Program-made: the position numbers and the translations under genes
The notes under the pieces: model-generated
The model's input: only the letters and a program-made list of their open reading frames with translations
What the model was told of the DNA's origin: nothing
Databases searched by the model: none
Shown: piece by piece, positions 10,203-63,980 of the stretch
Layout: each line of letters starts with the position of its first letter
Position numbering within the stretch: position 1 is the first letter of the stretch
DNA from: Escherichia coli
GTDB taxonomy: Bacteria; Pseudomonadota; Gammaproteobacteria; Enterobacterales; Enterobacteriaceae
DNA length: 64,000 nucleotides
Reading direction: 5' to 3' (one strand)
Assembly: GCF_048403405.1 (NCBI RefSeq)
Contig: NZ_CP183129.1

Positions 10203-10745
10203 ATGAAAAAAATTGCGCTAGCAGGTCTGGCCGGAATGCTGTTGGTTTCTGCATCGGTCAATGCAATGAGCATCAGCGGCCAGGCGGGTAAAGAATACAC
10301 CAATATTGGTGTCGGTTTTGGGACTGAATCGACGGGCCTGGCGTTAAGCGGTAACTGGACACATAACGACGACGACGGTGACGTCGCGGGCGTGGGGCTG
10401 GGGTTGAATCTGCCTCTCGGGCCGTTAATGGCGACCGTTGGCGGAAAAGGCGTTTACACCAACCCGAATTACGGCGATGAAGGTTATGCCGCAGCGGTAG
10501 GAGGTGGTTTGCAGTGGAAAATTGGCAACAGCTTCCGTTTGTTTGGCGAGTATTACTACTCTCCGGATTCGCTCTCCAGCGGTATTCAAAGTTATGAGGA
10601 AGCGAATGCTGGCGCGCGTTACACCATTATGCGTCCAGTCAGTATTGAGGCGGGTTATCGCTACCTGAACCTTTCTGGTAAAGACGGTAACCGCGACAAC
10701 GCCGTGGCTGACGGCCCGTATGTTGGGGTTAACGCCAGTTTCTGA
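10203..10745 (+). CDS. yfaZ: outer membrane protein YfaZ
   Basis: Signal peptide MKKIALAGLAGMLLVSASVNA followed by glycine-rich beta-strand-like sequence ending in F. Confidence 0.7.
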   Translation: MKKIALAGLAGMLLVSASVNAMSISGQAGKEYTNIGVGFGTESTGLALSGNWTHNDDDGDVAGVGLGLNLPLGPLMATVGGKGVYTNPNYGDEGYAAAVGGGLQWKIGNSFRLFGEYYYSPDSLSSGIQSYEEANAGARYTIMRPVSIEAGYRYLNLSGKDGNRDNAVADGPYVGVNASF

Positions 10746-28360: not shown

Positions 28361-28413
28361 TCGTTGTAGGCCAGATAATACGCGTAAGCGTCGTATCTGG
28401 CGCTAGTACCCGA

Positions 28414-28668: not shown

Positions 28669-29798
28669 CAGAGCTGGAAGTTACTCAAATCGTCGGTGTC
28701 CACTTCCGAGTCAATCTGCCCGACCAGATAAGAACTGACTTCCACTTCCTGCGGAGCAACCTGCACGTTATCAGACACCAGCCAGGTATTGATCCACGGG
28801 ATCGGGTTGGAGCGCGTCTGGAACGGCAGATCCAAACCGACTGCCTGCATGCGGATATTGGTGATGTATTCAACGTACTGGCAGAGAATGTCTTTATTCA
28901 GACCAATCATCGAACCGTCGCGGAACAGATAATCCGCCCAGTCTTTCTCTTGCTGTGCCGCCTGGACAAACAGGTCATAGCACTCCTGCTTACATTCTTC
29001 GGCAATTTCCGCCATCTCCGGATCATCCGCACCGCTGCGCAGCAGATTCAGCATATGCTGAGTACCGGTCAGGTGCAGGGCTTCGTCGCGGGCAATCAGG
29101 CGAATAATTTTGGCGTTACCTTCCATCAGTTCGCGTTCTGCAAAGGCAAAGGAACAAGCAAAGCTGACGTAGAAGCGGATCGCTTCCAGCGCGTTAACGC
29201 TCATCAGGCAGAGATACAGTTTTTTCTTCAGCTCGCGCAGGCTAACGGTTACGGTTTTACCGTTAACGGTGTGGGTACCTTCGCCCAGCAGATGCCAGTA
29301 GCTGGTCATTTCGATCAGCTCATCGTAATAGCTGGAGATCCCTTCCGCACGTTTCTGGATCTGCTCGTTGGTGACGATATCATCAAACACAACGGACGGA
29401 TCGTTAACGATATTACGAATGATATGGGTATAAGAACGAGAGTGAATGGTTTCTGAGAACGCCCAGGTTTCGACCCAGGTTTCCAGTTCAGGGATCGAGA
29501 TCAGCGGCAGCAGTGCCACGTTCGGGCTGCGACCCTGAATGGAGTCCAGCAACGTCTGATATTTCAGGTTGCTGATAAAGATGTGTTTTTCGTGTTCAGG
29601 CAGTGCCTGGTAATCGATACGGTCACGAGAAACGTCAACTTCTTCCGGACGCCAGAAGAAAGAGAGCTGCTTTTCGATCAGCTTTTCGAAGATGTCATAT
29701 TTTTGCTGATCGTAGCGAGCCACGTTGACCGGCTGACCAAAGAACATCGGTTCTTTGAGCTGATCATTTTTCGTCTGTGAAAAGGTGGTATATGCCAT
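28668..29798 (-). CDS. nrdB: ribonucleoside-diphosphate reductase 1 beta subunit
   Basis: Translation from [14 protein letters not shown] (376 aa) matches class Ia RNR small subunit; track ORF extends 17 codons upstream. Confidence 0.9.
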
Positions 29799-29821
29799 GA
29801 ATGTGTCCTGTTGGGAGTTTA

Positions 29822-29934
29822 ATGCCGGATAAGGCATTTTACGCCGCATCCTGTGCCTGATGCGACGCTGGCGCGTCTTATCAGGCCTACAAACCGAGCC
29901 GTATGCCGGATAAGGCGTTCACGCCGCATCCGGC
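29822..29934. repeat. REP/BIME cluster between nrdA and nrdB
   Basis: Palindromic units gccggataaggcgtt.acgccgcatccggc and gcctgatgcgacgctggcgcgtcttatcaggcctac. Confidence 0.7.
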
Positions 29935-29943
29935 ATCTCAATA

Positions 29944-32229
29944 TCAGATCTTACATGCGCCGCTTTCGCAGCCATCGTCCTGGATTGACGGTACCAGATC
30001 GTCCTGCGCGTCTTCAGCGCCGTCACGGGTGTTCTGATAATACAGCGTTTTGACCCCGAATTTGTAGGCGGTGAGCAGGTCTTTCAGCAGTTGCTGCATC
30101 GGCACTTTTCCTGACGGGAAGCGTGACGGATCGTAGTTGGTGTTAGCAGAGATCGACTGATCGATAAATTTCTGCATGATACCCACCAGTTGCAGATAGC
30201 CATCGTTACCCGGCATTTCCCACAGCAGTTCATAGGCGTCGTGCAGATGCTCGTAGTCCGGCACCACCTGGCGCAGAATACCGTCTTTCGACGCTTTGAT
30301 GCTGACGTAACCACGCGGCGGTTCAATACCGTTAGTGGCGTTAGAGATCTGCGAAGAGGTCTCGGACGGCATCAGAGCAGAAAGCGTGGAGTTACGCAGG
30401 CCGTGCGTTTTGATTGACTCACGCAGTGCTTCCCAGTCGTAATGCAGCGGCTCATTAGCGATGGCATCCAGATCTTTCTTATAGGTATCGATCGGCAGGA
30501 TCCCTTTCGCGTAAGTGGTTTCGTTAAACCACGGGCACGCGCCTTGCTCTTTCGCCAGCTCATTAGAGGCTTTCAGCAGGTAATACTGAATAGCTTCGAA
30601 GGTTTTATGCGTCAGGTTGTTGGCGCTGCCGTCGGAGTAGCGTTTACCGTGCTTCGCCAGGTAGTAAGCGAAGTTGATCACACCAATACCCAGCGTACGA
30701 CGACCCATCGCTCCACGTTTGGCGGCCGGGATCGGGTAATCCTGATAGTCCAGCAGCGCGTCGAGTGCGCGTACCGCCAGAATCGCCAGCTCTTCCAGTT
30801 CATCCAGGCTATTAATTGCACCCAGGTTGAAAGCAGACAGCGTACACAGCGCGATTTCACCGTTCTCGTCGTTGACATCATTCAGCGGTTTGGTCGGCAG
30901 GGCGATTTCCAGGCACAGGTTAGACTGGCGCACTGGCGCGATGGCCGGATCAAACGGGCTATGGGTATTGCAGTGGTCAACGTTCTGAATATAGATACGA
31001 CCGGTAGACGCACGTTCCTGCATCATCAGCGAGAACAGCTCAACGGCTTTCACACGCTGCTTGCGGATGCTGTCGTCTTTCTCATATTTGGTATACAGGC
31101 GTTCAAACTCTTCCTGATCGGCGAAGAACGCGTCGTACAGCCCCGGTACGTCGGACGGGCTGAACAGAGTGATATCTTCACCTTTCAGCAGACGGGTATA
31201 CATCAGTTTGTTGATTTGTACCCCGTAGTCCATATGACGCACGCGGTTGCCTTCAACCCCACGGTTGTTTTTCAAAACCAACAGGCTTTCCACTTCCAGA
31301 TGCCACATCGGGTAGAACAGCGTTGCCGCACCGCCGCGCACACCGCCCTGAGAGCAGGATTTCACCGCTGTCTGGAAATGTTTGTAGAACGGGATACAGC
31401 CGGTATGGAACGCTTCGCCACCGCGAATCGGGCTACCCAGCGCGCGAATACGCCCGGCGTTGATGCCGATCCCGGCACGCTGGGATACGTATTTAACAAT
31501 CGCGCTGGAGGTGGCGTTGATGGAATCCAGGCTGTCACCGCACTCGATCAGTACGCAGGAGCTGAACTGACGAGTCGGGGTACGCACGCCGGACATGATT
31601 GGCGTCGGCAGCGAAATTTTAAATGTGGAAACCGCGTCGTAAAAACGCTTCACATATTGCAGGCGCGTTTCACGCGGGTAGTTCGAGAACAGGCACGCGG
31701 CAACCAGAATATAAAGGAACTGGGCGCTTTCGTAGATTTCGCCGGTCACACGGTTCTGCACCAGATATTTGCCTTCCAGCTGTTTAACGGCAGCATAAGA
31801 GAAGGTCATATCACGGTCGTGATCGATAAACGTGTCCATCTGCTTGAACTCTTCTTCCGTGTAGTCTTCCAGCAGATGATTATCGTATTTGCCCATCTCG
31901 ACCATTTTCACCACGTGGTCGTACAGCGCAGGCGGCTCAAACTGGCCGTAGGCTTTTTTACGCAGGTGGAAGATCGCCAGGCGCGCGGCGAGATACTGAT
32001 AATCCGGCGCATCACGGGAGATCAGGTCTGCGGCAGCCTTGATAATGGTTTCGTGGATGTCAGAGGTCTTGATACCGTCATAAAACTGAATGTGGGAGCG
32101 CAGTTCGACCTGGGAAATCGAAACGTTATGCAGTCCTTCTGCCGCCCAATCCAGAACGCGATGGATTTTGTCGAGATTGATGCGCTCTGTGCTACCGTCG
32201 CGCTTTGTCACCAGCAGATTCTGATTCAT
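29944..32229 (-). CDS. nrdA: ribonucleoside-diphosphate reductase 1 alpha subunit
   Basis: 761-aa ORF beginning MNQNLLVTKRDGSTERINLDKIHRVLDWAAEGL (ATP-cone then RNR large subunit). Confidence 0.95.
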   Translation of the reverse strand: MNQNLLVTKRDGSTERINLDKIHRVLDWAAEGLHNVSISQVELRSHIQFYDGIKTSDIHETIIKAAADLISRDAPDYQYLAARLAIFHLRKKAYGQFEPPALYDHVVKMVEMGKYDNHLLEDYTEEEFKQMDTFIDHDRDMTFSYAAVKQLEGKYLVQNRVTGEIYESAQFLYILVAACLFSNYPRETRLQYVKRFYDAVSTFKISLPTPIMSGVRTPTRQFSSCVLIECGDSLDSINATSSAIVKYVSQRAGIGINAGRIRALGSPIRGGEAFHTGCIPFYKHFQTAVKSCSQGGVRGGAATLFYPMWHLEVESLLVLKNNRGVEGNRVRHMDYGVQINKLMYTRLLKGEDITLFSPSDVPGLYDAFFADQEEFERLYTKYEKDDSIRKQRVKAVELFSLMMQERASTGRIYIQNVDHCNTHSPFDPAIAPVRQSNLCLEIALPTKPLNDVNDENGEIALCTLSAFNLGAINSLDELEELAILAVRALDALLDYQDYPIPAAKRGAMGRRTLGIGVINFAYYLAKHGKRYSDGSANNLTHKTFEAIQYYLLKASNELAKEQGACPWFNETTYAKGILPIDTYKKDLDAIANEPLHYDWEALRESIKTHGLRNSTLSALMPSETSSQISNATNGIEPPRGYVSIKASKDGILRQVVPDYEHLHDAYELLWEMPGNDGYLQLVGIMQKFIDQSISANTNYDPSRFPSGKVPMQQLLKDLLTAYKFGVKTLYYQNTRDGAEDAQDDLVPSIQDDGCESGACKI

Positions 32230-32306
32230 GTATGTCGTACCTGTTTTTGGAATTCTTTCCGCAATAGTTTCATGCAGACTACCTGTAGTGAGGGAAGCTG
32301 CTTAGA

Positions 32307-32352
32307 ACACTATATATAGGGGGTATGTTTGGGATTCACTGCAAGATAGTGT
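32307..32352 (-). promoter_or_regulatory. candidate NrdR boxes in nrdAB promoter
   Basis: Two palindrome-like elements acactatatataggg and cactgcaagatagtgtg about 80-120 bp upstream of nrdA. Confidence 0.4.
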
Positions 32353-32382
32353 GAAAATGGCCCTCTTGCAAGTGCATAACTT

Positions 32383-32391
32383 TGTGGATAA
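32383..32391 (-). promoter_or_regulatory. DnaA box (TTATCCACA) upstream of nrdA
   Basis: Perfect 9-mer consensus on the minus strand (plus strand tgtggataa). Confidence 0.5.
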
Positions 32392-32924
32392 CTCAGGAAG
32401 GAAAAAGTGGCTTTCGCGCACCTTAGGTCAGACAAGGTGTCCGGGAAAGTCAATGGGAAGAGAAAAATTTGTTAAAAATAACTGTTCGGCGATTTCTTGA
32501 ACGGAAGAATAGGTTAGATAAATTGATATAGATGGTTTATTAATCTTTTGGCTAATGATTGCAAAAATTGATCTAAGCACGAGTCATCACATAATCTGAT
32601 GTATCAGTTCTGGTCAATATATAAGCGAATGTAAGCGATTGTTGATATCGAAATGGTTGTTTTCTCTTCGGTTGTTGTTAAATGCGAAGCCATTTTGTTA
32701 ATTTACCTTATATTATAAGAAAATTATTCATTACTTTAATTCAGTTTAAACATAACTGATATCCCTTAAGGTGATTAACTTGAATTATGACGCACTGATA
32801 TTATTCATGAAATAATAACAAAATAGCCATTGCACCGGGTTGAACAATTTACAAAAGAAAAATAACCCATATCGTATAATGCGATTAAATATGCCGTCTT
32901 ATAGAAAATGATGGTCAGATTAAT

Positions 32925-35900
32925 ATGCGGATTATTTTTCTACGCAAGGAGTATTTATCTTTACTCCCGTCAATGATTGCATCTCTTTTCTCTGCTAACG
33001 GTGTCGCGGCGGCCATTGATTCATGTCAGGGATATGATATCAAAGCGAGTTGTCACGCCAGCAGGCAAAGCCTTTCAGGCATTACGCAGGACTGGAGCAT
33101 CGCCGATGGGCAATGGCTGGTTTTTTCGGATATGACCAATAACGCCAGCGGTGGGGCCGTATTTTTGCAACAAGGAGCGGAGTTTTCTCTATCGCCAGAA
33201 AATGAAACTGGAATGACTCTGTTTGCCAATAATACTGTCTCAGGAGAATATAATAACGGCGGGGCAATATTTGCTAAAGAAAACTCAACGCTGAATCTTA
33301 CTAATGTTATTTTTTCCGATAACGTTGCAGGTGGCTATGGTGGCGCAATCTATTCTTCTGGTACTAACGATACCGGTGTCGTCGATTTAAGTGTCACTAA
33401 CGCCGTGTTTCGCAATAACATCGCTAATGACGGCAAAGGTGGTGCAATTTATACCATCAACAATGACGTCTATTTAAGTGAAGTTATTTTTGACAATAAC
33501 CAGGCATATACATCAACAAGTTACAGCGATGGCGATGGGGGCGCAATCGATGTCACCGATAATAATAGCGATATCACGCATCCGTCAGGTTTCACAATAA
33601 TAAATAACACCGCATTTACAAATAACACTGCCGAAGGTTATGGCGGGGCAATTTATACCAATAGCGTGACGGCTCCCTATCTTATTGATATTTCGATTGA
33701 TGACAGCTACAGCCAGAACGGCGGCGTGTTACTCGATGAGAACAATAGCGCGGCAGGTTATGGGGATGGTCCTTCCACTGCGGCGGGCGGCTTTATGTAT
33801 CTCGGCTTAAGTGAAGTTACCTTTGATATTGCCGACGGAAAAACGCTGGTTATCGGCAATACAGAGAATGACGGAGCTGTTGACTCTATTGCTGGTACCG
33901 GGGTAATCACCAAAACAGGTTCCGGCGATCTGGTACTTAATGCAGATAACAATGACTTTACTGGCGAGATGCAGATAGAAAACGGTGAAGTTACCCTGGG
34001 CCGCAGCAACTCCCTGATGAATGTCGGCGATACGCATTGCCAGGACGATCCGCAAGACTGCTACGGTCTGACGATAGGGAGTATTGATCAGTATCAGAAT
34101 CAGGCTGAGCTAAACGTTGGCTCGACCCAACAAACTTTTGTGCACGCATTGACGGGCTTTCAGAATGGCACTTTAAATATCGATGCTGGTGGCAACGTTA
34201 CTGTTAATCAGGGCAGTTTTGCTGGCACCATCGAAGGTGCTGGTCAGCTCACCATTGCGCAAAACGGCAGCTACGTGCTGGCAGGGGCGCAGTCGATGGC
34301 GCTAACCGGCGATATAGTCGTTGATGATGGCGCGGTGCTTACGCTGGAAGGCGACGCGGCAGATCTTGCCGCTCTCCAGGACGATCCGCAGTCGATCGTG
34401 TTAAACGGCGGTGTGCTCGATCTCTCTGATTTCTCCACCTGGCAGAGCGGTACATCATACAACGATGGCCTTGAAGTCAGCGGCAGCAGCGGAACGGTTA
34501 TCGGCAGTCAGGATGTGGTAGATCTTGCAGGCGGAAACGATATGCATATCGGCGGTGACGGGAAAGATGGCGTCTACGTGGTGGTCGATGCGGGCGACGG
34601 GCTGGTTAGCCTGGCAAACAATAATAGTTACCTGGGCACCACGCAAATCGCTTCCGGTACGCTGGTGGTGAGCGACAACTCGCAGCTTGGCAATACCGAC
34701 GAAAACCGTCAGCTCATCTTTACTGATAGCCAACAACAAAGTGAGATGGAAATTACCGCTGACGTTGATACTCGTTCAGAGGCAGCAGGTCACGGGCGTG
34801 ATATTGAAATGCGCGCCGACGGTGAAGTGGCGGTTGATGCGGGGGTAGACACGCAGTGGGGCGCACTGATGGCTGACAGCAGCGGGCAGCATCTGGATGA
34901 GGGTAGCACATTGACTAAAACGGGAGCGGGTACGCTGGAAATGACCGCCAGTGGTACGACGCAGTCGGCGGTACGTGTCGAAGAAGGCACGCTGCAAGGC
35001 GATGTTGCGGATATCTTCCCTTATGCTTCGTCGCTGTGGGTCGGTGACGGGGCAACGTTCAAGACTGGCGCGGATCAGGATATTCAGTCAATTGATGTTA
35101 CTTCCAGCGGCACTATCGACATCAGCGATGGTACGGTTTTGCGCCTGACCGGGCAGGATACTTCCGTCGCCCTTAATGCCTCACTGTTTAACGGCGATGG
35201 GACGCTGGTGAATGCTACTGATGGCGTGACGTTGACAGGCGAGCTTAATACCAACCTTGAAACTGACAGCCTGACCTATCTTGCCGACGTGACGGTTAAT
35301 GGTGATCTGACCAATACGTCCGGTGCGGTTAGCCTGCAAAATGGCGTCGCTGGCGATACGCTGACGGTAAACGGTGATTATACCGGCGGCGGTACGCTAC
35401 TGCTCGATAGCGAATTAAACGGCGATGACTCGGCAAGTGACCAACTGGTGTTGAACGGTAATACTGCTGGCAACACGACCGTGGTAATTAATCCCATTAC
35501 GGGTATTGGTGAGCCGACATCTACAGGTATTAAAGTGGTTGATTTCGCAGCCGAACCCACGCAGTTTCAAAACAATGCGCAGTTCAGTCTGGCGGGCAGC
35601 GGCTACGTCAATATGGGCGCGTATGACTACACGCTGGTGGAAGATAACAACGACTGGTATCTGCGATCGCAAGAAGTAACGCCACCATCGCCACCTGATC
35701 CAGACCCGACTCCCGATCCTGATCCCACGCCGGATCCTGATCCAACACCCGACCCGGAACCTACGCCTGCCTACCAGCCGGTGTTGAATGCCAAAGTTGG
35801 TGGATATTTTAATAACCTGCGGGCGGCAAATCAGGCGTTTGTGATGGAGCGACACGATCACGCTGGTGGCGATGGTCAGACGCTGAATTTACGTATTATC

Positions 35901-36677
35901 GGCGGAGATTATCATTACACAGCAGCGGGGCAACTGGCTCAGCATGAAGATACTTCTACGGTGCAGCTTAGCGGCGACTTGTTTAGCGGACGCTGGGGCG
36001 CGGATGGCGAGTGGATGCTTGGGGCGGTTGGTGGCTACAGTGATAACCAGGGCGACAGCCGCTCGAATATGACCGGAACTCGCGCCGATAACCAGAACCA
36101 CGGTTATGCCGTTGGTCTGACCTCAAGCTGGTTTCAGCACGGTAATCAGAAGCAGGGGGCCTGGCTGGATAGCTGGCTGCAATACGCGTGGTTTAACAAT
36201 GATGTTTCCGAACATGAAGATGGCGTGGATCATTACCACTCATCGGGGATTATCGCCTCGCTGGAAGCCGGGTATCAGTGGTTACCGGGGCATGGAGTGG
36301 TGATTGAACCACAGGCGCAGGTGATTTATCAGGGCGTGCAGCAGGATGATTTTACCGCCGCTAACCATGCGCGCGTGTCACAATCGCAGGGTGATGATAT
36401 TCAAACGCGGCTGGGTTTACACAGCGAATGGCGTACCGCTGTTCATGTCATACCATCATTAGATCTGAATTATTATCACGATCCCCATGCGACGGAAATT
36501 GAAGAAGATGGCAGCACTATCAGTGACGATGCGGTGAAGCAACGGGGTGAAATAAAAGTGGGAGTCACGGGCAATATCAGTCAGCGAGTTTCGCTGCGCG
36601 GCAGCGTGGCGTGGCAGAAAGGGAGTGATGATTTTGCCCAGACGGCAGGGTTTTTGTCGATGACGGTGAAATGGTAG
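32925..36677 (+). CDS. yfaL: autotransporter adhesin (AIDA-type) YfaL
   Basis: 1250-aa ORF: passenger with GGAIY-type repeats, proline-rich linker, C-terminal beta-barrel ending in W. Confidence 0.85.
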   Translation: MRIIFLRKEYLSLLPSMIASLFSANGVAAAIDSCQGYDIKASCHASRQSLSGITQDWSIADGQWLVFSDMTNNASGGAVFLQQGAEFSLSPENETGMTLFANNTVSGEYNNGGAIFAKENSTLNLTNVIFSDNVAGGYGGAIYSSGTNDTGVVDLSVTNAVFRNNIANDGKGGAIYTINNDVYLSEVIFDNNQAYTSTSYSDGDGGAIDVTDNNSDITHPSGFTIINNTAFTNNTAEGYGGAIYTNSVTAPYLIDISIDDSYSQNGGVLLDENNSAAGYGDGPSTAAGGFMYLGLSEVTFDIADGKTLVIGNTENDGAVDSIAGTGVITKTGSGDLVLNADNNDFTGEMQIENGEVTLGRSNSLMNVGDTHCQDDPQDCYGLTIGSIDQYQNQAELNVGSTQQTFVHALTGFQNGTLNIDAGGNVTVNQGSFAGTIEGAGQLTIAQNGSYVLAGAQSMALTGDIVVDDGAVLTLEGDAADLAALQDDPQSIVLNGGVLDLSDFSTWQSGTSYNDGLEVSGSSGTVIGSQDVVDLAGGNDMHIGGDGKDGVYVVVDAGDGLVSLANNNSYLGTTQIASGTLVVSDNSQLGNTDENRQLIFTDSQQQSEMEITADVDTRSEAAGHGRDIEMRADGEVAVDAGVDTQWGALMADSSGQHLDEGSTLTKTGAGTLEMTASGTTQSAVRVEEGTLQGDVADIFPYASSLWVGDGATFKTGADQDIQSIDVTSSGTIDISDGTVLRLTGQDTSVALNASLFNGDGTLVNATDGVTLTGELNTNLETDSLTYLADVTVNGDLTNTSGAVSLQNGVAGDTLTVNGDYTGGGTLLLDSELNGDDSASDQLVLNGNTAGNTTVVINPITGIGEPTSTGIKVVDFAAEPTQFQNNAQFSLAGSGYVNMGAYDYTLVEDNNDWYLRSQEVTPPSPPDPDPTPDPDPTPDPDPTPDPEPTPAYQPVLNAKVGGYFNNLRAANQAFVMERHDHAGGDGQTLNLRIIGGDYHYTAAGQLAQHEDTSTVQLSGDLFSGRWGADGEWMLGAVGGYSDNQGDSRSNMTGTRADNQNHGYAVGLTSSWFQHGNQKQGAWLDSWLQYAWFNNDVSEHEDGVDHYHSSGIIASLEAGYQWLPGHGVVIEPQAQVIYQGVQQDDFTAANHARVSQSQGDDIQTRLGLHSEWRTAVHVIPSLDLNYYHDPHATEIEEDGSTISDDAVKQRGEIKVGVTGNISQRVSLRGSVAWQKGSDDFAQTAGFLSMTVKW
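35683..35769 (+). repeat. tandem PDPDPT-encoding repeats in yfaL linker
   Basis: cc(t/c)gatcc(t/a)ga(t/c)cc.ac.cc repeated; translation PPSPPDPDPTPDPDPTPDPDPTPDPEPTP. Confidence 0.6.
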
Positions 36678-36683
36678 CTGCTT

Positions 36684-36735
36684 TGCGCCCGGCATTGTAG
36701 CCGGATGTGGTGCGAGCACCTTATCCGGCTAACAA
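36684..36735. repeat. REP-like palindromic element between yfaL and ubiG
   Basis: gcccggcattgtagccggatg...cttatccggctaac. Confidence 0.5.
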
Positions 36736-36737
36736 TT

Positions 36738-37460
36738 TTATTTATTCTGCGTGTGCAGCATATAGTTCACATCGACGCCGGGGCCGAGCTTAAAGGAATT
36801 AGTGATCGGGTTGTAATGCAGCCCGGTTATATGTCGCTCTTTTAAACTGGTCTGATCCACCCAGCCCAGCAGTTCTGCCGGTTTTATAAATTTCTTCACG
36901 TCGTGCGTGCCTTTGGGCACCATGCGCAAAATATATTCCGCGCCAACCACCGCCATCAGCCATGACTTGCCGTTGCGGTTAAGCGTCGAGAAAAAGACAT
37001 CGCCGCCCGGTTTCACCAGTTGCGCACAGGCTCTGACCACTGACTGCGGATCGGGGACGTGCTCCAGCATCTCCATGCAGGTCACCACGTCATACTGCCC
37101 GGCATGTTTTGCCGCGTGCTCTTCCACGGTTTCCTGCACGTACTCTACCTGAATGCCACTTTCCAGCGCGTGCAACTTTGCCACCTGCAATGGCTCAAAG
37201 CCCATATCCAGACCGGTCACCGTCGCGCCTTCGCGCGCCATACTCTCGGCCAGAATGCCGCCGCCACAACCGACATCGAGCACCTTTTTGCCAAATAAAC
37301 CGCCAGCACGCTCGGCAATATAGCCCAGACGCAGCGGGTTAATGCGGTGCAGCGGTTTGAACTCACCTTCAAGATCCCACCAGCGGGAGGCGACAGCTTC
37401 AAATTTAGCGATCTCTTCGTGGTCTACGTTATGGTTTACCGGCGATTTTTCGGCATTCAT
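36738..37460 (-). CDS. ubiG: ubiquinone biosynthesis O-methyltransferase
   Basis: SAM-methyltransferase motif [13 protein letters not shown]; start chosen at [10 protein letters not shown] (track ORF is 16 codons longer). Confidence 0.85.
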
Positions 37461-57151: not shown

Positions 57152-60001
57152 TTGAAATACCTTGCTTCTTTTCGTACAACCCTGAAAGCCTCGCGCTACA
57201 TGTTCAGAGCATTGGCGTTAGTGCTCTGGCTGTTGATTGCTTTTTCATCCGTTTTTTACATCGTTAATGCGTTACATCAGCGAGAATCGGAAATTCGTCA
57301 GGAATTTAATCTGAGTTCCGATCAGGCTCAGCGCTTTATTCAACGTACCTCTGATGTGATGAAAGAGCTGAAGTACATCGCTGAAAATCGCTTATCGGCA
57401 GAAAACGGTGTGCTTTCCCCGCGTGGACGAGAAACGCAGGCGGATGTGCCTGCGTTTGAACCGCTGTTTGCCGACTCCGATTGTTCCGCAATGAGTAACA
57501 CCTGGCGAGGCTCTCTGGAGTCATTGGCGTGGTTTATGCGCTACTGGCGCGATAATTTCTCTGCGGCTTACGATCTCAACCGGGTATTTTTAATCGGCAG
57601 CGATAACCTCTGCATGGCCAATTTCGGTCTGCGTGATATGCCAGTGGAACGCGATACCGCGTTGAAAGCGTTGCATGAACGCATTAATAAATATCGAAAT
57701 GCACCACAAGATGATAGTGGCAGTAACCTCTACTGGATCAGCGAAGGTCCGCGCCCTGGCGTCGGGTATTTTTACGCGTTGACGCCAGTTTATCTGGCGA
57801 ACCGGTTGCAGGCGCTTTTGGGTGTCGAGCAGACTATCCGGATGGAGAATTTTTTCTTACCTGGTACGTTGCCGATGGGGGTTACCATTCTTGATGAAAA
57901 TGGTCATACCCTGATTTCGCTTACCGGACCAGAAAGTAAAATTAAGGGCGATCCTCGCTGGATGCAGGAACGCTCCTGGTTTGGCTATACGGAAGGGTTC
58001 CGGGAGCTGGTGCTGAAGAAAAATCTGCCACCCTCATCGCTAAGCATCGTGTATTCGGTGCCGGTTGATAAGGTGCTGGAACGCATTCGCATGTTGATCC
58101 TTAACGCAATTTTGCTGAATGTGCTTGCCGGAGCTGCATTGTTTACTCTCGCGCGGATGTACGAGCGACGTATTTTCATTCCGGCGGAAAGCGACGCCCT
58201 GCGACTGGAAGAACATGAGCAGTTTAATCGCAAGATTGTCGCCTCCGCGCCAGTGGGTATCTGCATTTTGCGTACCGCTGATGGCGTCAATATTTTAAGT
58301 AACGAACTGGCGCATACCTATCTCAATATGCTTACGCATGAGGATCGCCAACGGCTGACACAAATTATCTGTGGGCAGCAGGTCAATTTTGTTGATGTCC
58401 TGACCAGCAACAATACCAATCTGCAAATCAGCTTCGTCCATTCGCGCTATCGTAATGAAAACGTGGCCATTTGTGTGCTGGTGGATGTTTCTTCGCGCGT
58501 GAAGATGGAAGAGTCGTTGCAGGAGATGGCACAAGCAGCGGAACAGGCGAGCCAGTCAAAATCGATGTTCCTTGCCACCGTCAGTCATGAGCTGCGAACG
58601 CCGCTGTATGGCATTATCGGTAACCTGGATCTGTTGCAAACCAAAGAGTTACCGAAAGGCGTCGATCGTCTGGTGACGGCAATGAACAACTCTTCCAGCC
58701 TGTTGTTGAAAATTATCAGCGATATTCTCGATTTCTCGAAGATTGAATCGGAACAGTTGAAGATCGAACCGCGTGAGTTTTCACCGCGTGAAGTGATGAA
58801 CCACATCACCGCCAACTATTTACCGCTGGTGGTACGCAAGCAGTTAGGCTTGTACTGCTTTATTGAACCGGATGTGCCAGTGGCCTTAAATGGCGACCCG
58901 ATGCGTTTACAGCAGGTCATCTCCAACCTGTTGAGTAACGCCATAAAATTCACCGATACCGGCTGTATAGTTTTGCATGTTCGCACTGATGGCGATTATC
59001 TCTCTATCCGTGTTCGCGATACCGGCGTGGGGATTCCGGCGAAAGAAGTGGTGCGCTTGTTTGATCCCTTCTTCCAGGTCGGAACGGGCGTACAGCGTAA
59101 CTTCCAGGGGACCGGTCTGGGTCTGGCGATTTGTGAAAAACTGATCAGCATGATGGACGGCGATATCTCGGTAGATTCAGAACCGGGAATGGGTAGCCAG
59201 TTTACCGTGCGTATTCCGTTGTACGGCGCTCAGTACCCGCAGAAAAAAGGCGTGGAAGGGTTGAGTGGTAAACGCTGCTGGCTGGCGGTCCGCAATGCGT
59301 CGCTCTGTCAGTTCCTGGAAACCAGTTTGCAGCGCAGCGGCATCGTCGTTACAACATACGAAGGGCAGGAACCGACTCCCGAAGATGTGTTAATTACTGA
59401 CGAGGTAGTGAGTAAAAAATGGCAGGGTAGAGCGGTAGTGACCTTCTGTCGTCGCCATATTGGTATTCCGCTGGAGAAAGCGCCAGGGGAGTGGGTACAC
59501 AGTGTGGCTGCCCCGCATGAGCTACCGGCATTGTTGGCGCGTATTTATTTGATCGAGATGGAGAGCGACGATCCTGCTAACGCTCTGCCGTTAACGGACA
59601 AAGCGGTCAGCGATAACGACGATATGATGATTCTGGTCGTGGATGATCATCCGATTAACCGGCGTCTGCTGGCAGATCAGTTGGGATCGTTGGGCTATCA
59701 ATGTAAAACCGCGAATGATGGCGTCGATGCGCTTAATGTACTTAGCAAGAATCATATTGATATCGTGCTTAGCGACGTCAACATGCCAAATATGGATGGT
59801 TACCGCTTGACGCAACGCATTCGTCAGTTGGGACTGACGTTGCCGGTAATCGGAGTAACTGCTAATGCGTTGGCTGAAGAGAAGCAGCGGTGTCTGGAGT
59901 CTGGTATGGACAGCTGCCTGTCGAAGCCGGTAACGCTGGATGTGATAAAACAGACGCTAACGGTATATGCCGAGAGGGTCAGGAAATCGCGGGATTCGTA
60001 G
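57152..60001 (+). CDS. rcsC: hybrid sensor histidine kinase RcsC
   Basis: 949-aa ORF: H-box SHELRTPLYGI, HATPase domain, C-terminal receiver (DDHPINRRLL...D...K). Confidence 0.9.
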   Translation: MKYLASFRTTLKASRYMFRALALVLWLLIAFSSVFYIVNALHQRESEIRQEFNLSSDQAQRFIQRTSDVMKELKYIAENRLSAENGVLSPRGRETQADVPAFEPLFADSDCSAMSNTWRGSLESLAWFMRYWRDNFSAAYDLNRVFLIGSDNLCMANFGLRDMPVERDTALKALHERINKYRNAPQDDSGSNLYWISEGPRPGVGYFYALTPVYLANRLQALLGVEQTIRMENFFLPGTLPMGVTILDENGHTLISLTGPESKIKGDPRWMQERSWFGYTEGFRELVLKKNLPPSSLSIVYSVPVDKVLERIRMLILNAILLNVLAGAALFTLARMYERRIFIPAESDALRLEEHEQFNRKIVASAPVGICILRTADGVNILSNELAHTYLNMLTHEDRQRLTQIICGQQVNFVDVLTSNNTNLQISFVHSRYRNENVAICVLVDVSSRVKMEESLQEMAQAAEQASQSKSMFLATVSHELRTPLYGIIGNLDLLQTKELPKGVDRLVTAMNNSSSLLLKIISDILDFSKIESEQLKIEPREFSPREVMNHITANYLPLVVRKQLGLYCFIEPDVPVALNGDPMRLQQVISNLLSNAIKFTDTGCIVLHVRTDGDYLSIRVRDTGVGIPAKEVVRLFDPFFQVGTGVQRNFQGTGLGLAICEKLISMMDGDISVDSEPGMGSQFTVRIPLYGAQYPQKKGVEGLSGKRCWLAVRNASLCQFLETSLQRSGIVVTTYEGQEPTPEDVLITDEVVSKKWQGRAVVTFCRRHIGIPLEKAPGEWVHSVAAPHELPALLARIYLIEMESDDPANALPLTDKAVSDNDDMMILVVDDHPINRRLLADQLGSLGYQCKTANDGVDALNVLSKNHIDIVLSDVNMPNMDGYRLTQRIRQLGLTLPVIGVTANALAEEKQRCLESGMDSCLSKPVTLDVIKQTLTVYAERVRKSRDS

Positions 60002-60002
60002 G

Positions 60003-60086
60003 GCGGATAAGGCGTTTACGCCGCATCTGGCATTCAGTGCAAATGCCAGATGCGACGCTGACGCGTCTTATCTGGCCTACAGATGA
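60003..60086. repeat. REP element(s) between convergent rcsC and rcsB
   Basis: ggcggataaggcgtttacgccgcatctggca ... gccagatgcgacgctgacgcgtcttatctggcctac. Confidence 0.6.
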
Positions 60087-60737
60087 TTAGTCTTTATCTG
60101 CCGGACTTAAGGTCACAGAAGAGAGATAATTCAGCAGAGCAATATCGTTCTCGACACCCAGCTTCATCATCGCAGATTTCTTCTGGCTACTGATGGTTTT
60201 AATACTGCGGTTCAGCTTTTTAGCGATCTCGGTCACCAGGAAGCCTTCCGCAAACAGGCGCAGAACTTCACTCTCTTTTGGCGAGAGACGCTTGTCACCG
60301 TAACCACCAGCACTGATTTTTTCCAACAGGCGAGAAACGCTTTCCGGGGTAAATTTCTTCCCTTTCTGCAGCGCGGCGAGAGCTTTCGGCAGATCGGTCG
60401 GTGCACCTTGTTTCAGCACGATCCCTTCGATATCCAGATCCAATACCGCACTAAGAATCGCCGGGTTGTTGTTCATGGTCAGAACGATGATCGACAGGCT
60501 TGGGAAATGGCGCTTGATGTACTTGATTAAGGTAATGCCATCGCCGTACTTATCGCCAGGCATGGAGAGATCGGTAATCAACACATGCGCATCCAGTTTC
60601 GGCAGGTTGTTGATCAGTGCTGTAGAGTCTTCAAATTCGCCGACAACATTCACCCACTCAATTTGCTCAAGTGATTTGCGAATACCGAACAAGACTATCG
60701 GATGGTCATCGGCAATAATTACGTTCATATTGTTCAT
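60087..60737 (-). CDS. rcsB: response regulator RcsB (LuxR/FixJ family)
   Basis: 216-aa ORF from MNNMNVIIADDHPIVLFGIRKSL with C-terminal LuxR-type HTH. Confidence 0.9.
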   Translation of the reverse strand: MNNMNVIIADDHPIVLFGIRKSLEQIEWVNVVGEFEDSTALINNLPKLDAHVLITDLSMPGDKYGDGITLIKYIKRHFPSLSIIVLTMNNNPAILSAVLDLDIEGIVLKQGAPTDLPKALAALQKGKKFTPESVSRLLEKISAGGYGDKRLSPKESEVLRLFAEGFLVTEIAKKLNRSIKTISSQKKSAMMKLGVENDIALLNYLSSVTLSPADKD

Positions 60738-63737: not shown

Positions 63738-63830
63738 AAAAAAAACCGGATGCGAGGCATCCGGTTGAAATAGGGGTAAACAGACATTCAGAAATGAATG
63801 ACGGTAATAAATAAAGTTAATGATGATAGC
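63738..63830 (-). ncRNA. micF: MicF small regulatory RNA (antisense regulator of ompF)
   Basis: Minus strand reads GCTATCATCATTAACTTTATTTATTACCGTCATTCATTTCTGAATGTCTGTTTACCCCTATTTCAACCGGATGCCTCGCATCCGGTTTTTTTT with terminal hairpin and U-tract. Confidence 0.85.
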
Positions 63831-63980
63831 GGGAGTTATTCTAGTTGCGAGTGAAGGTTTTGTTTTGACATTCAGTGCTGTCAAATACTTAAGAATAAGT
63901 TATTGATTTTACCCTTGAATTATTATTGCTTGATGTTAGGTGCTTATTTCGCCATTCCGCAATAATCTTAAAAAGTTCCC

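Follow-up and report, generated by a model that had tools for sequence, protein, structure and literature searches.

The question raised by this locus is what the short palindromes between nrdA and nrdB are, and what they may be expected to do there and at the other gene ends where they recur. The window, by which the whole analysed stretch of 64,000 nucleotides of E. coli DNA is meant, spans the chromosome from micF to the glp region and corresponds, in comparison with MG1655, to the reverse complement of micF-rcsDB-rcsC-ato-gyrA-ubiG-yfaL-nrdAB-yfaE-inaA. An Rfam search placed MicF at 63738-63831 on the minus strand, and a 1.2-kb piece around the nrd site, carrying the genes nrdA and nrdB, was 100% identical to several E. 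coli chromosomes. Since nrdA and nrdB share the minus strand, the former ending at 29944 (stop codon at 29944-29946) and the latter starting at 29798, the space between them is an intercistronic junction. The genes are convergent at the junctions of yfaL (plus strand, stop at 36675-36677) with ubiG (minus strand, stop at 36738-36740) and of rcsC (plus strand, stop at 59999-60001) with rcsB (minus strand, stop at 60087-60089). The initial annotation had assigned REP palindromes to the nrdB/nrdA, yfaL and rcsC/rcsB junctions, and its gene names and junction types proved right by the MG1655 comparison and annotation.

Palindromes were visible at once on direct reading (GCCGGATAAGGCG...CGCCGCATCCGGC and GCCTGATGCGACGC...GCGTCTTATCAGGC). 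The core GCCKGATAAGRCG, with at most one mismatch, was matched six times in the window against 0.25 ± 0.5 times in shuffled sequences, none of 100 shuffles reached six matches, and all six were intergenic and lay inside the three junctions named above. Chance is excluded as the origin of these core-motif matches. When two mismatches were accepted, 19 matches were observed against 4.6 expected, a surplus that corresponded to the true sites, and the remaining ones were rejected as being at chance level. A scan by structure alone, which asked for an outer stem of 7 bp with GAT at its end, an interior of 12-24 nt and a complementary 3′ arm, returned five perfect units, all intergenic, at 28370-28401, 29855-29886, 29905-29934, 36700-36729 and 60045-60076, and two more units, at 29824-29853 and 60002-60031, were found to be degenerate. 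The window thus holds a total of seven REP units over four intergenic sites, the fourth of which, where inaA and yfaE converge, was absent from the initial list:

28366-28401, plus strand: Z2-type REP between inaA and yfaE; GTAG at 28366-28369 followed by a 32-nt imperfect palindrome at 28370-28401; -19.5 kcal/mol, z -5.3

29824-29853, plus strand: degenerate Y REP between nrdA and nrdB; no GTAG, outer stem truncated; -9.4/-11.8 kcal/mol

29855-29890, minus strand: Z2 REP between nrdA and nrdB; palindrome at 29855-29886 followed by CTAC at 29887-29890; -21.9 kcal/mol, z -5.2

29901-29934, plus strand: Y REP between nrdA and nrdB; GTAT instead of GTAG at 29901-29904, palindrome at 29905-29934; -23.9 kcal/mol, z -5.8 (mRNA strand)

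36700-36729, minus strand: divergent Y REP between yfaL and ubiG; GTTA instead of GTAG (36730-36733, minus strand); -20.6/-23.1 kcal/mol

59998-60031, plus strand: Y REP between rcsC and rcsB; GTAG at 59998-60001 followed by the Y palindrome at 60002-60031; -12.9 kcal/mol

60032-60044: linker of 13 nt (ATTCAGTGCAAAT) between Y and Z2, in the position of the "l" in the naRNA4 model

60045-60080, minus strand: Z2 REP between rcsC and rcsB; palindrome at 60045-60076 followed by CTAC (as read on the plus strand) at 60077-60080; -21.9 kcal/mol

Two further candidates were discarded: the match at 10440-10460 is due to chance and falls within a coding frame, and 24598-24625 is a perfect 10-bp hairpin (CAGGATGGCG...CGCCATCCTG) whose resemblance to a REP, through GGATG/CATCC, is superficial. 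This latter hairpin sits 8 nt past the glpQ stop codon.

Other repeats were also observed within coding sequences of the window. On the minus strand, a 319-aa ORF (16662-17621), which we take to be of the RpnB/YfaD type, is followed downstream by a 57-aa ORF (16476-16649) that duplicates its C-terminal region and presumably resembles K-12 ypaA; the two share direct repeats of 102 and 70 nt with 83-97% identity. Within yfaL, a tandem 18/36-nt repeat at 35694-35767 encodes a Pro/Asp-rich linker, and its length differs by 24 nt (35711-35734) between the window and strain CFSAN061763.

Following the definitions of Y and Z types and of BIMEs with alternating orientation (PMC3333891), the units were typed by full-length alignment to both halves of the Rfam naRNA4 (Y-l-Z2) model. 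The comparison with REP families bore out the initial reading, in that the units matched the Y and Z2 types. Pairwise identity between units was 89-92%, the inaA/yfaE unit being 92% complementary to the rcs Z2 unit; all of them lie between annotated genes, and the orientation always alternated from one unit to its neighbour, across linkers of 2-18 nt. The arrangement is that of BIME-2 elements, with Y-Z2-Y at nrd and Y-Z2 at rcs in inverse orientation and a copy number that varies among strains. These are dispersed sequences: a query with the nrd site matched 5,425 of 5,426 E. coli genomes, at a median of 28 places per genome.

REP palindromes were present at all three junctions of the initial annotation, where it had drawn them give or take a few bases. 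Its range for nrd was correct within a few bases, the one for yfaL/ubiG began 16 nt too early, and the one for rcsC/rcsB overlapped the REPs but ended 5-6 nt late and omitted GTAG. The description of the units as canonical held for some of them, but two have degenerate stems (29824-29853 and 60002-60031) and three are without an intact GTAG/CTAC. The five intact units folded at -18 to -24 kcal/mol, with z about -5 to -6 and a 2x2 or 1x1 internal loop, and the two degenerate ones at -9 to -13 kcal/mol; in the rcs Y unit (60002-60031), it is the outer stem that is weakened (GGCGGAT...ATCTGGC). The tetranucleotide is intact in four of the seven units (28366-28369, 29887-29890, 59998-60001 and 60077-60080), altered to GTAT at 29901-29904 and to GTTA at 36730-36733 on the minus strand, and missing at the 29824 unit. 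In the yfaL/ubiG unit, the inner stem reads GGTG/CACC instead of the GGCG/CGCC of K-12, a compensated change by which the hairpin is kept.

The nrd spacer measures 145 nt and is read on the nrdAB mRNA in the order nrdA stop codon, 7-9 nt, Y, GGCTCGGTTT, GTAG-Z2, CA, degenerate Y, 28 nt and nrdB ATG. The first unit on the transcript is the Y at 29901-29934, which ends in ATAC, not CTAC; the CTAC at 29887-29890 of the plus strand reads GTAG on the mRNA strand; and the third unit, at 29824-29853, is without CTAC, has the same sequence in K-12 and ends 28 nt upstream of the nrdB ATG, in a segment that includes AGGA. The whole cluster folds at z -5.1, and the nrdB ribosome-binding site is unpaired in its centroid fold. 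The rcs cluster folds at z -6.4 and -8.6 on the two strands. In both clusters, the minimum-energy folds pair neighbouring REPs together and do not leave them as separate hairpins, which makes the RNA structure in the cell uncertain.

Two gene-calling observations belong to this spacer. Mechanical ORF calling lengthens nrdB by 17 codons (29799-29849, minus strand), up to an ATG at 29849 inside the REP (GGATGCGG), and the comparison with K-12 placed the real nrdB start at 29798. On the plus strand, an 11-codon ORF (29797-29832), antisense to the nrdB start, corresponds to the small protein YoaM (b4779) annotated in K-12, and its last three codons and TAA stop fall within the degenerate Y REP (GCC GGA TAA).

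These units are very probably ordinary E. coli Y and Z2 REPs, placed singly or paired as BIME-2-like elements after stop codons, with the mRNA and DNA roles published for the family. Their sequence type, hairpin potential, dispersed copies, extragenic position, copy-number polymorphism and use as IS1397 targets were observed directly. The functional roles at these particular sites are those that published work on the family would lead one to expect. Liang et al. (2015), in the account given in PMC12306157, found that a REP within 15 nt of a stop codon stalls ribosomes and lowers the translation of the upstream gene, the nrdAB transcript being included. In the window, the distance from stop codon to stem is 0-2 nt for rcsC (whose TAG stop is itself part of the GTAG at 59998-60001), 6 nt for ubiG, 7-9 nt for nrdA, 9 nt for inaA, 10 nt for rcsB (to the Z2 stem at 60045-60080, on the rcsB mRNA strand), 12 nt for yfaE and 18-22 nt for yfaL. 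Six of the seven genes thus have a REP stem within 12 nt of their stop codon, inside the 15-nt spacing, and yfaL falls outside it, a distribution that fits the published roles in mRNA protection and ribosome stalling.

The roles in question would be exerted at two levels. First, on the mRNA, each REP would form a stable hairpin without a U-tract, which would block 3′-to-5′ exonucleases and protect the upstream message; a stem no more than 15 nt from the stop codon would also stall the terminating ribosome and reduce the output of the upstream gene (nrdA, inaA, yfaE, ubiG, rcsC and rcsB). The REPs between nrdA and nrdB would in this way tune the ratio of the two reductase subunits. Second, on the DNA, the inverted Y/Z2 pairs would allow Y-Z2 units to be gained or lost by unequal recombination, and the REPs would serve as substrates for the REP-associated tyrosine transposase and as targets of IS1397. 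Because this transposase requires GTAG and the stem mismatch (PMC3333891), it is predicted not to act on the three units that lack GTAG.

The initial annotation had pointed to strain-to-strain differences in copy number, and such differences were found at three of the four sites. Relative to K-12, the window has three REPs instead of five between nrdA and nrdB, where K-12 has one 88-nt Y-Z2 unit more; two instead of four between rcsC and rcsB (K-12 longer by 114 nt); one instead of two between yfaL and ubiG (K-12 longer by 67 nt); and one as in K-12 between inaA and yfaE, with no length difference. The MG1655 annotation used carries no REP features. The first nrd Y of the window has the 5′ flank and 5′ half of K-12 Y1 and the loop and 3′ half of K-12 Y2; from this, we infer a mosaic of the kind that an unequal crossover between K-12-type Y1 and Y2 would leave.

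For the allele survey, genomes were drawn at regular intervals from the ranked BLAST matches, which gave about 59 chromosomes for each site. Between nrdA and nrdB, the window length was found in 11 of them, the K-12-like length (+88/+89 nt) in 21, +81 nt (O55/O157) in 4, +93 and +96 nt in 2, +44 nt in 3 and -57 nt in 18. The rcsC/rcsB site was window-like in 11 and K-12-like in 48, and yfaL/ubiG was window-like in 7, longer by 67 nt in 31 and longer by 78 to 80 nt in 21. The inaA/yfaE junction had a constant length in all 39 genomes sampled.

Two of the nrd alleles hold something other than a Y/Z2 array. In the +44 allele, as in strain 536, there are four REPs, of the Y type and of a short Z-like type. 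The -57 allele, for instance in strain JCH8249, replaces the segment equivalent to 29799-29943 of the window by a REP-free 88-nt spacer with the palindrome CCCCTCTCCCCTTGCGGGAGAGGGTTAGGGTGAGGGG, and this spacer was recovered at a coverage of at least 80% in 1,684 of 5,426 genomes (31%). The REPs are therefore dispensable at nrdA-nrdB. A core of about 55 nt of this spacer is itself a dispersed repeat, at a median of 7 places per genome, and a copy of 52 nt, 86.5% identical, lies just upstream of fabI in K-12. We take the palindrome to be boxC, the fabI upstream region being where boxC was first described. The size given for boxC, 51-59 bp (PMC5172473), fits the 52-nt K-12 copy.

The boxC-type spacer was also observed in strain CFSAN061763, which is near-identical to the window up to 29811, carries that spacer, differs by about 1.5% across nrdA and the greater part of yfaL (29812-35734) and becomes identical again after 35734. 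Judged by its sequence, the divergent segment is a recombination tract that the nrdAB spacer bounds on one side.

Across lineages, the nrdA-nrdB space is thus filled by Y/Z2 arrays of three or five units, by the four Y/short-Z units of strain 536 or by the boxC-like element, and the distance from the nrdA stop codon to the hairpin is about 7 nt in the REP alleles vs. about 28 nt in the boxC-type allele. A tentative reading, which we consider rather doubtful, is that the space after the nrdA stop codon may be selected for some stable hairpin of any origin, in which case the 15-nt rule would make NrdA output and the NrdA:NrdB ratio vary among natural strains.

The IS insertions that the initial annotation expected in some strains also came to light, as IS1397, an IS3-family element, was found exactly in the hairpin loop of two REPs, those of inaA/yfaE and yfaL/ubiG. 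In AR_0077, IS1397 interrupts the GTAA loop of the former, with GTAA duplicated, and in SK1402 the insertion point is the loop of the Y unit between yfaL and ubiG. The junction of the latter insertion recurred with 100% identity in at least 8 further genomes, mostly of O25:H4 type, which suggests a clonally inherited insertion. A query made of a REP half plus an IS end found a place covering at least 80% of it in 1,884 genomes; the counting of IS-occupied alleles by such junction queries was abandoned as non-discriminating, since IS1397 ends elsewhere are also flanked by REP halves. The target specificity of IS1397 for REP units has been documented (PMC1525189).

An alternative that must be weighed against the published roles is that the units are selfish or neutral, have no host function at these sites and are found after stop codons because insertions are tolerated there. 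The free variation of copy number among strains, the replacement of the nrdA-nrdB REPs by an unrelated palindrome in 31% of genomes, the degeneration of several units and the persistence of REP-splitting IS insertions in natural strains all speak in its favour. In the same direction, the loss of GTAG in three of the seven units and the weak stems of two of them suggest decay rather than maintained function. Against this stand the compensated stem change at yfaL/ubiG, which keeps the hairpin, the invariant length of the inaA/yfaE junction in 39 of 39 sampled genomes and the published effects of REPs on mRNA decay and translation, which in the account of PMC12306157 include the nrdAB transcript. 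A selfish or neutral nature without host function at these sites is a possible account, although an unlikely one, and the interpretation as REPs with the roles of their family is preferred.

It is less probable still that these REPs act chiefly as signals for transcription stop or attenuation, at the convergent gene ends and within the nrdAB operon. Transcription attenuation associated with BIMEs has been reported, and the REPs are the sole strong hairpins in the three convergent junctions, where no intrinsic terminator was predicted. However, no unit is followed by a U-tract, and nrdB lies downstream of the nrd cluster, which must be transcribed through. Indeed, the search predicted no intrinsic (Rho-independent) terminator at any of the REP sites, no unit being trailed by a T-run, and terminators of this kind were ruled out as the identity of the units. 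Between the genes at the nrd, rcs and inaA/yfaE sites there was likewise no promoter-like match; the sole one near the yfaL site, at 36660-36631 on the minus strand, falls within the yfaL coding sequence, upstream of the REP.

A third alternative concerns the rcsC/rcsB unit, and perhaps the nrd cluster, which could represent a functional naRNA4-like, nucleoid-associated noncoding RNA, that is, a 3′ UTR transcript that binds HU and bridges DNA cruciforms. The rcs unit matched naRNA4 (RF02564) at 60001-60077 on the plus strand with 73.4 bits, over the full model and above the gathering score of 59.5, and has both of the hairpins, Y and Z2, that PMC4550694 names as required for the effect. However, the naRNA4 model is itself one 77-nt Y-l-Z2 unit of REP325 (PMC4550694), which is why the rcs unit passes its threshold; any Y-l-Z2 BIME would score well, and even the opposite strand of the rcs unit reached 51.6 bits. 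In addition, the sequence of the rcs linker is unlike that of the model, and the published function comes from REP325, an array of six units at another locus (PMC4550694). The nrd, yfaL and inaA units are below threshold, the scores at the other REP sites of the window ranging from 28.9 to 53.7 bits (two placements at nrd, with 53.7 and 42.5 bits, and the single units with 31.6 and 28.9 bits). The match at rcs does not imply the published HU-dependent function, and such a function here is improbable.

Lastly, a CRISPR-like array or a new structured RNA, which repeated palindromes as short as these (about 30-37 nt), grouped between genes, might call to mind, is practically negligible as an explanation, as adjacent units are inverted and not direct, the linkers of 2-18 nt leave no unique spacers, there are at most three units per site and TRF reported no tandem array at any REP site, and the same units, which match a known family, occur at four loci of the window and at tens of places per genome. 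The warning in the initial annotation that these units should be mistaken neither for CRISPR repeats nor for novel RNAs was thus upheld by anatomy and TRF, with the qualification that the rcs unit nonetheless formally matches the curated naRNA4 family.

Altogether, the observation of REP palindromes is confirmed and their reading as REP/BIME elements is supported, and this is already known, including copy-number variation and IS1397 targeting. It matters little beyond correct annotation. Their recognition as REP/BIME elements avoids miscalling them as CRISPR repeats, new structured RNAs or a true naRNA4 gene, prevents the false extension of nrdB to the ATG inside the REP, and guards against misreading length polymorphism and IS1397 insertions in genome comparisons. 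The natural allele series between nrdA and nrdB (three REPs, five REPs, four REPs of another type and the boxC-like element), set in an essential operon, would lend itself to testing what has been published on how REPs control mRNA decay and translation.

Among the known systems, BIME-1 elements (Y plus Z1 with a long L linker that binds IHF; RIP/RIB) resemble the present sites in having an inverted REP pair with Y; they were ruled out, since no Z1 unit and no L linker are found here, the linkers measure only 2-18 nt and the IHF core WATCAANNNNTTR has no match in any of the four intergenic regions. The boxC element is, like the REPs, a dispersed GC-rich extragenic palindrome, and it fills the nrdA-nrdB space in 31% of genomes, but its sequence is unrelated to REP and it is absent from the window. 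The likeness to naRNA4/REP325 (Qian et al. 2015, PMC4550694) lies in the rcs site being a 77-nt Y-linker-Z2 unit above the gathering threshold; it differs in its locus, in having one unit and not six and in the sequence of its linker. The Y/Z2 REPs in BIME-2-like arrangement (Gilson, Bachellier, Hofnung; Ton-Hoang et al. 2012, PMC3333891) are the system to which the units correspond. The window departs from it in its short arrays (1.5 units at nrd, one at rcs and an isolated REP at each of the two remaining sites), in the loss of GTAG from three units and in the weaker stems of two. Its units share with this system the imperfect palindromes of 30-32 nt with an internal mismatch, the GTAG/CTAC at the foot of four of the seven units, the Y and Z2 types in alternating orientation with short linkers, the extragenic position after stop codons, the dispersal over the genome and the variable number among strains.
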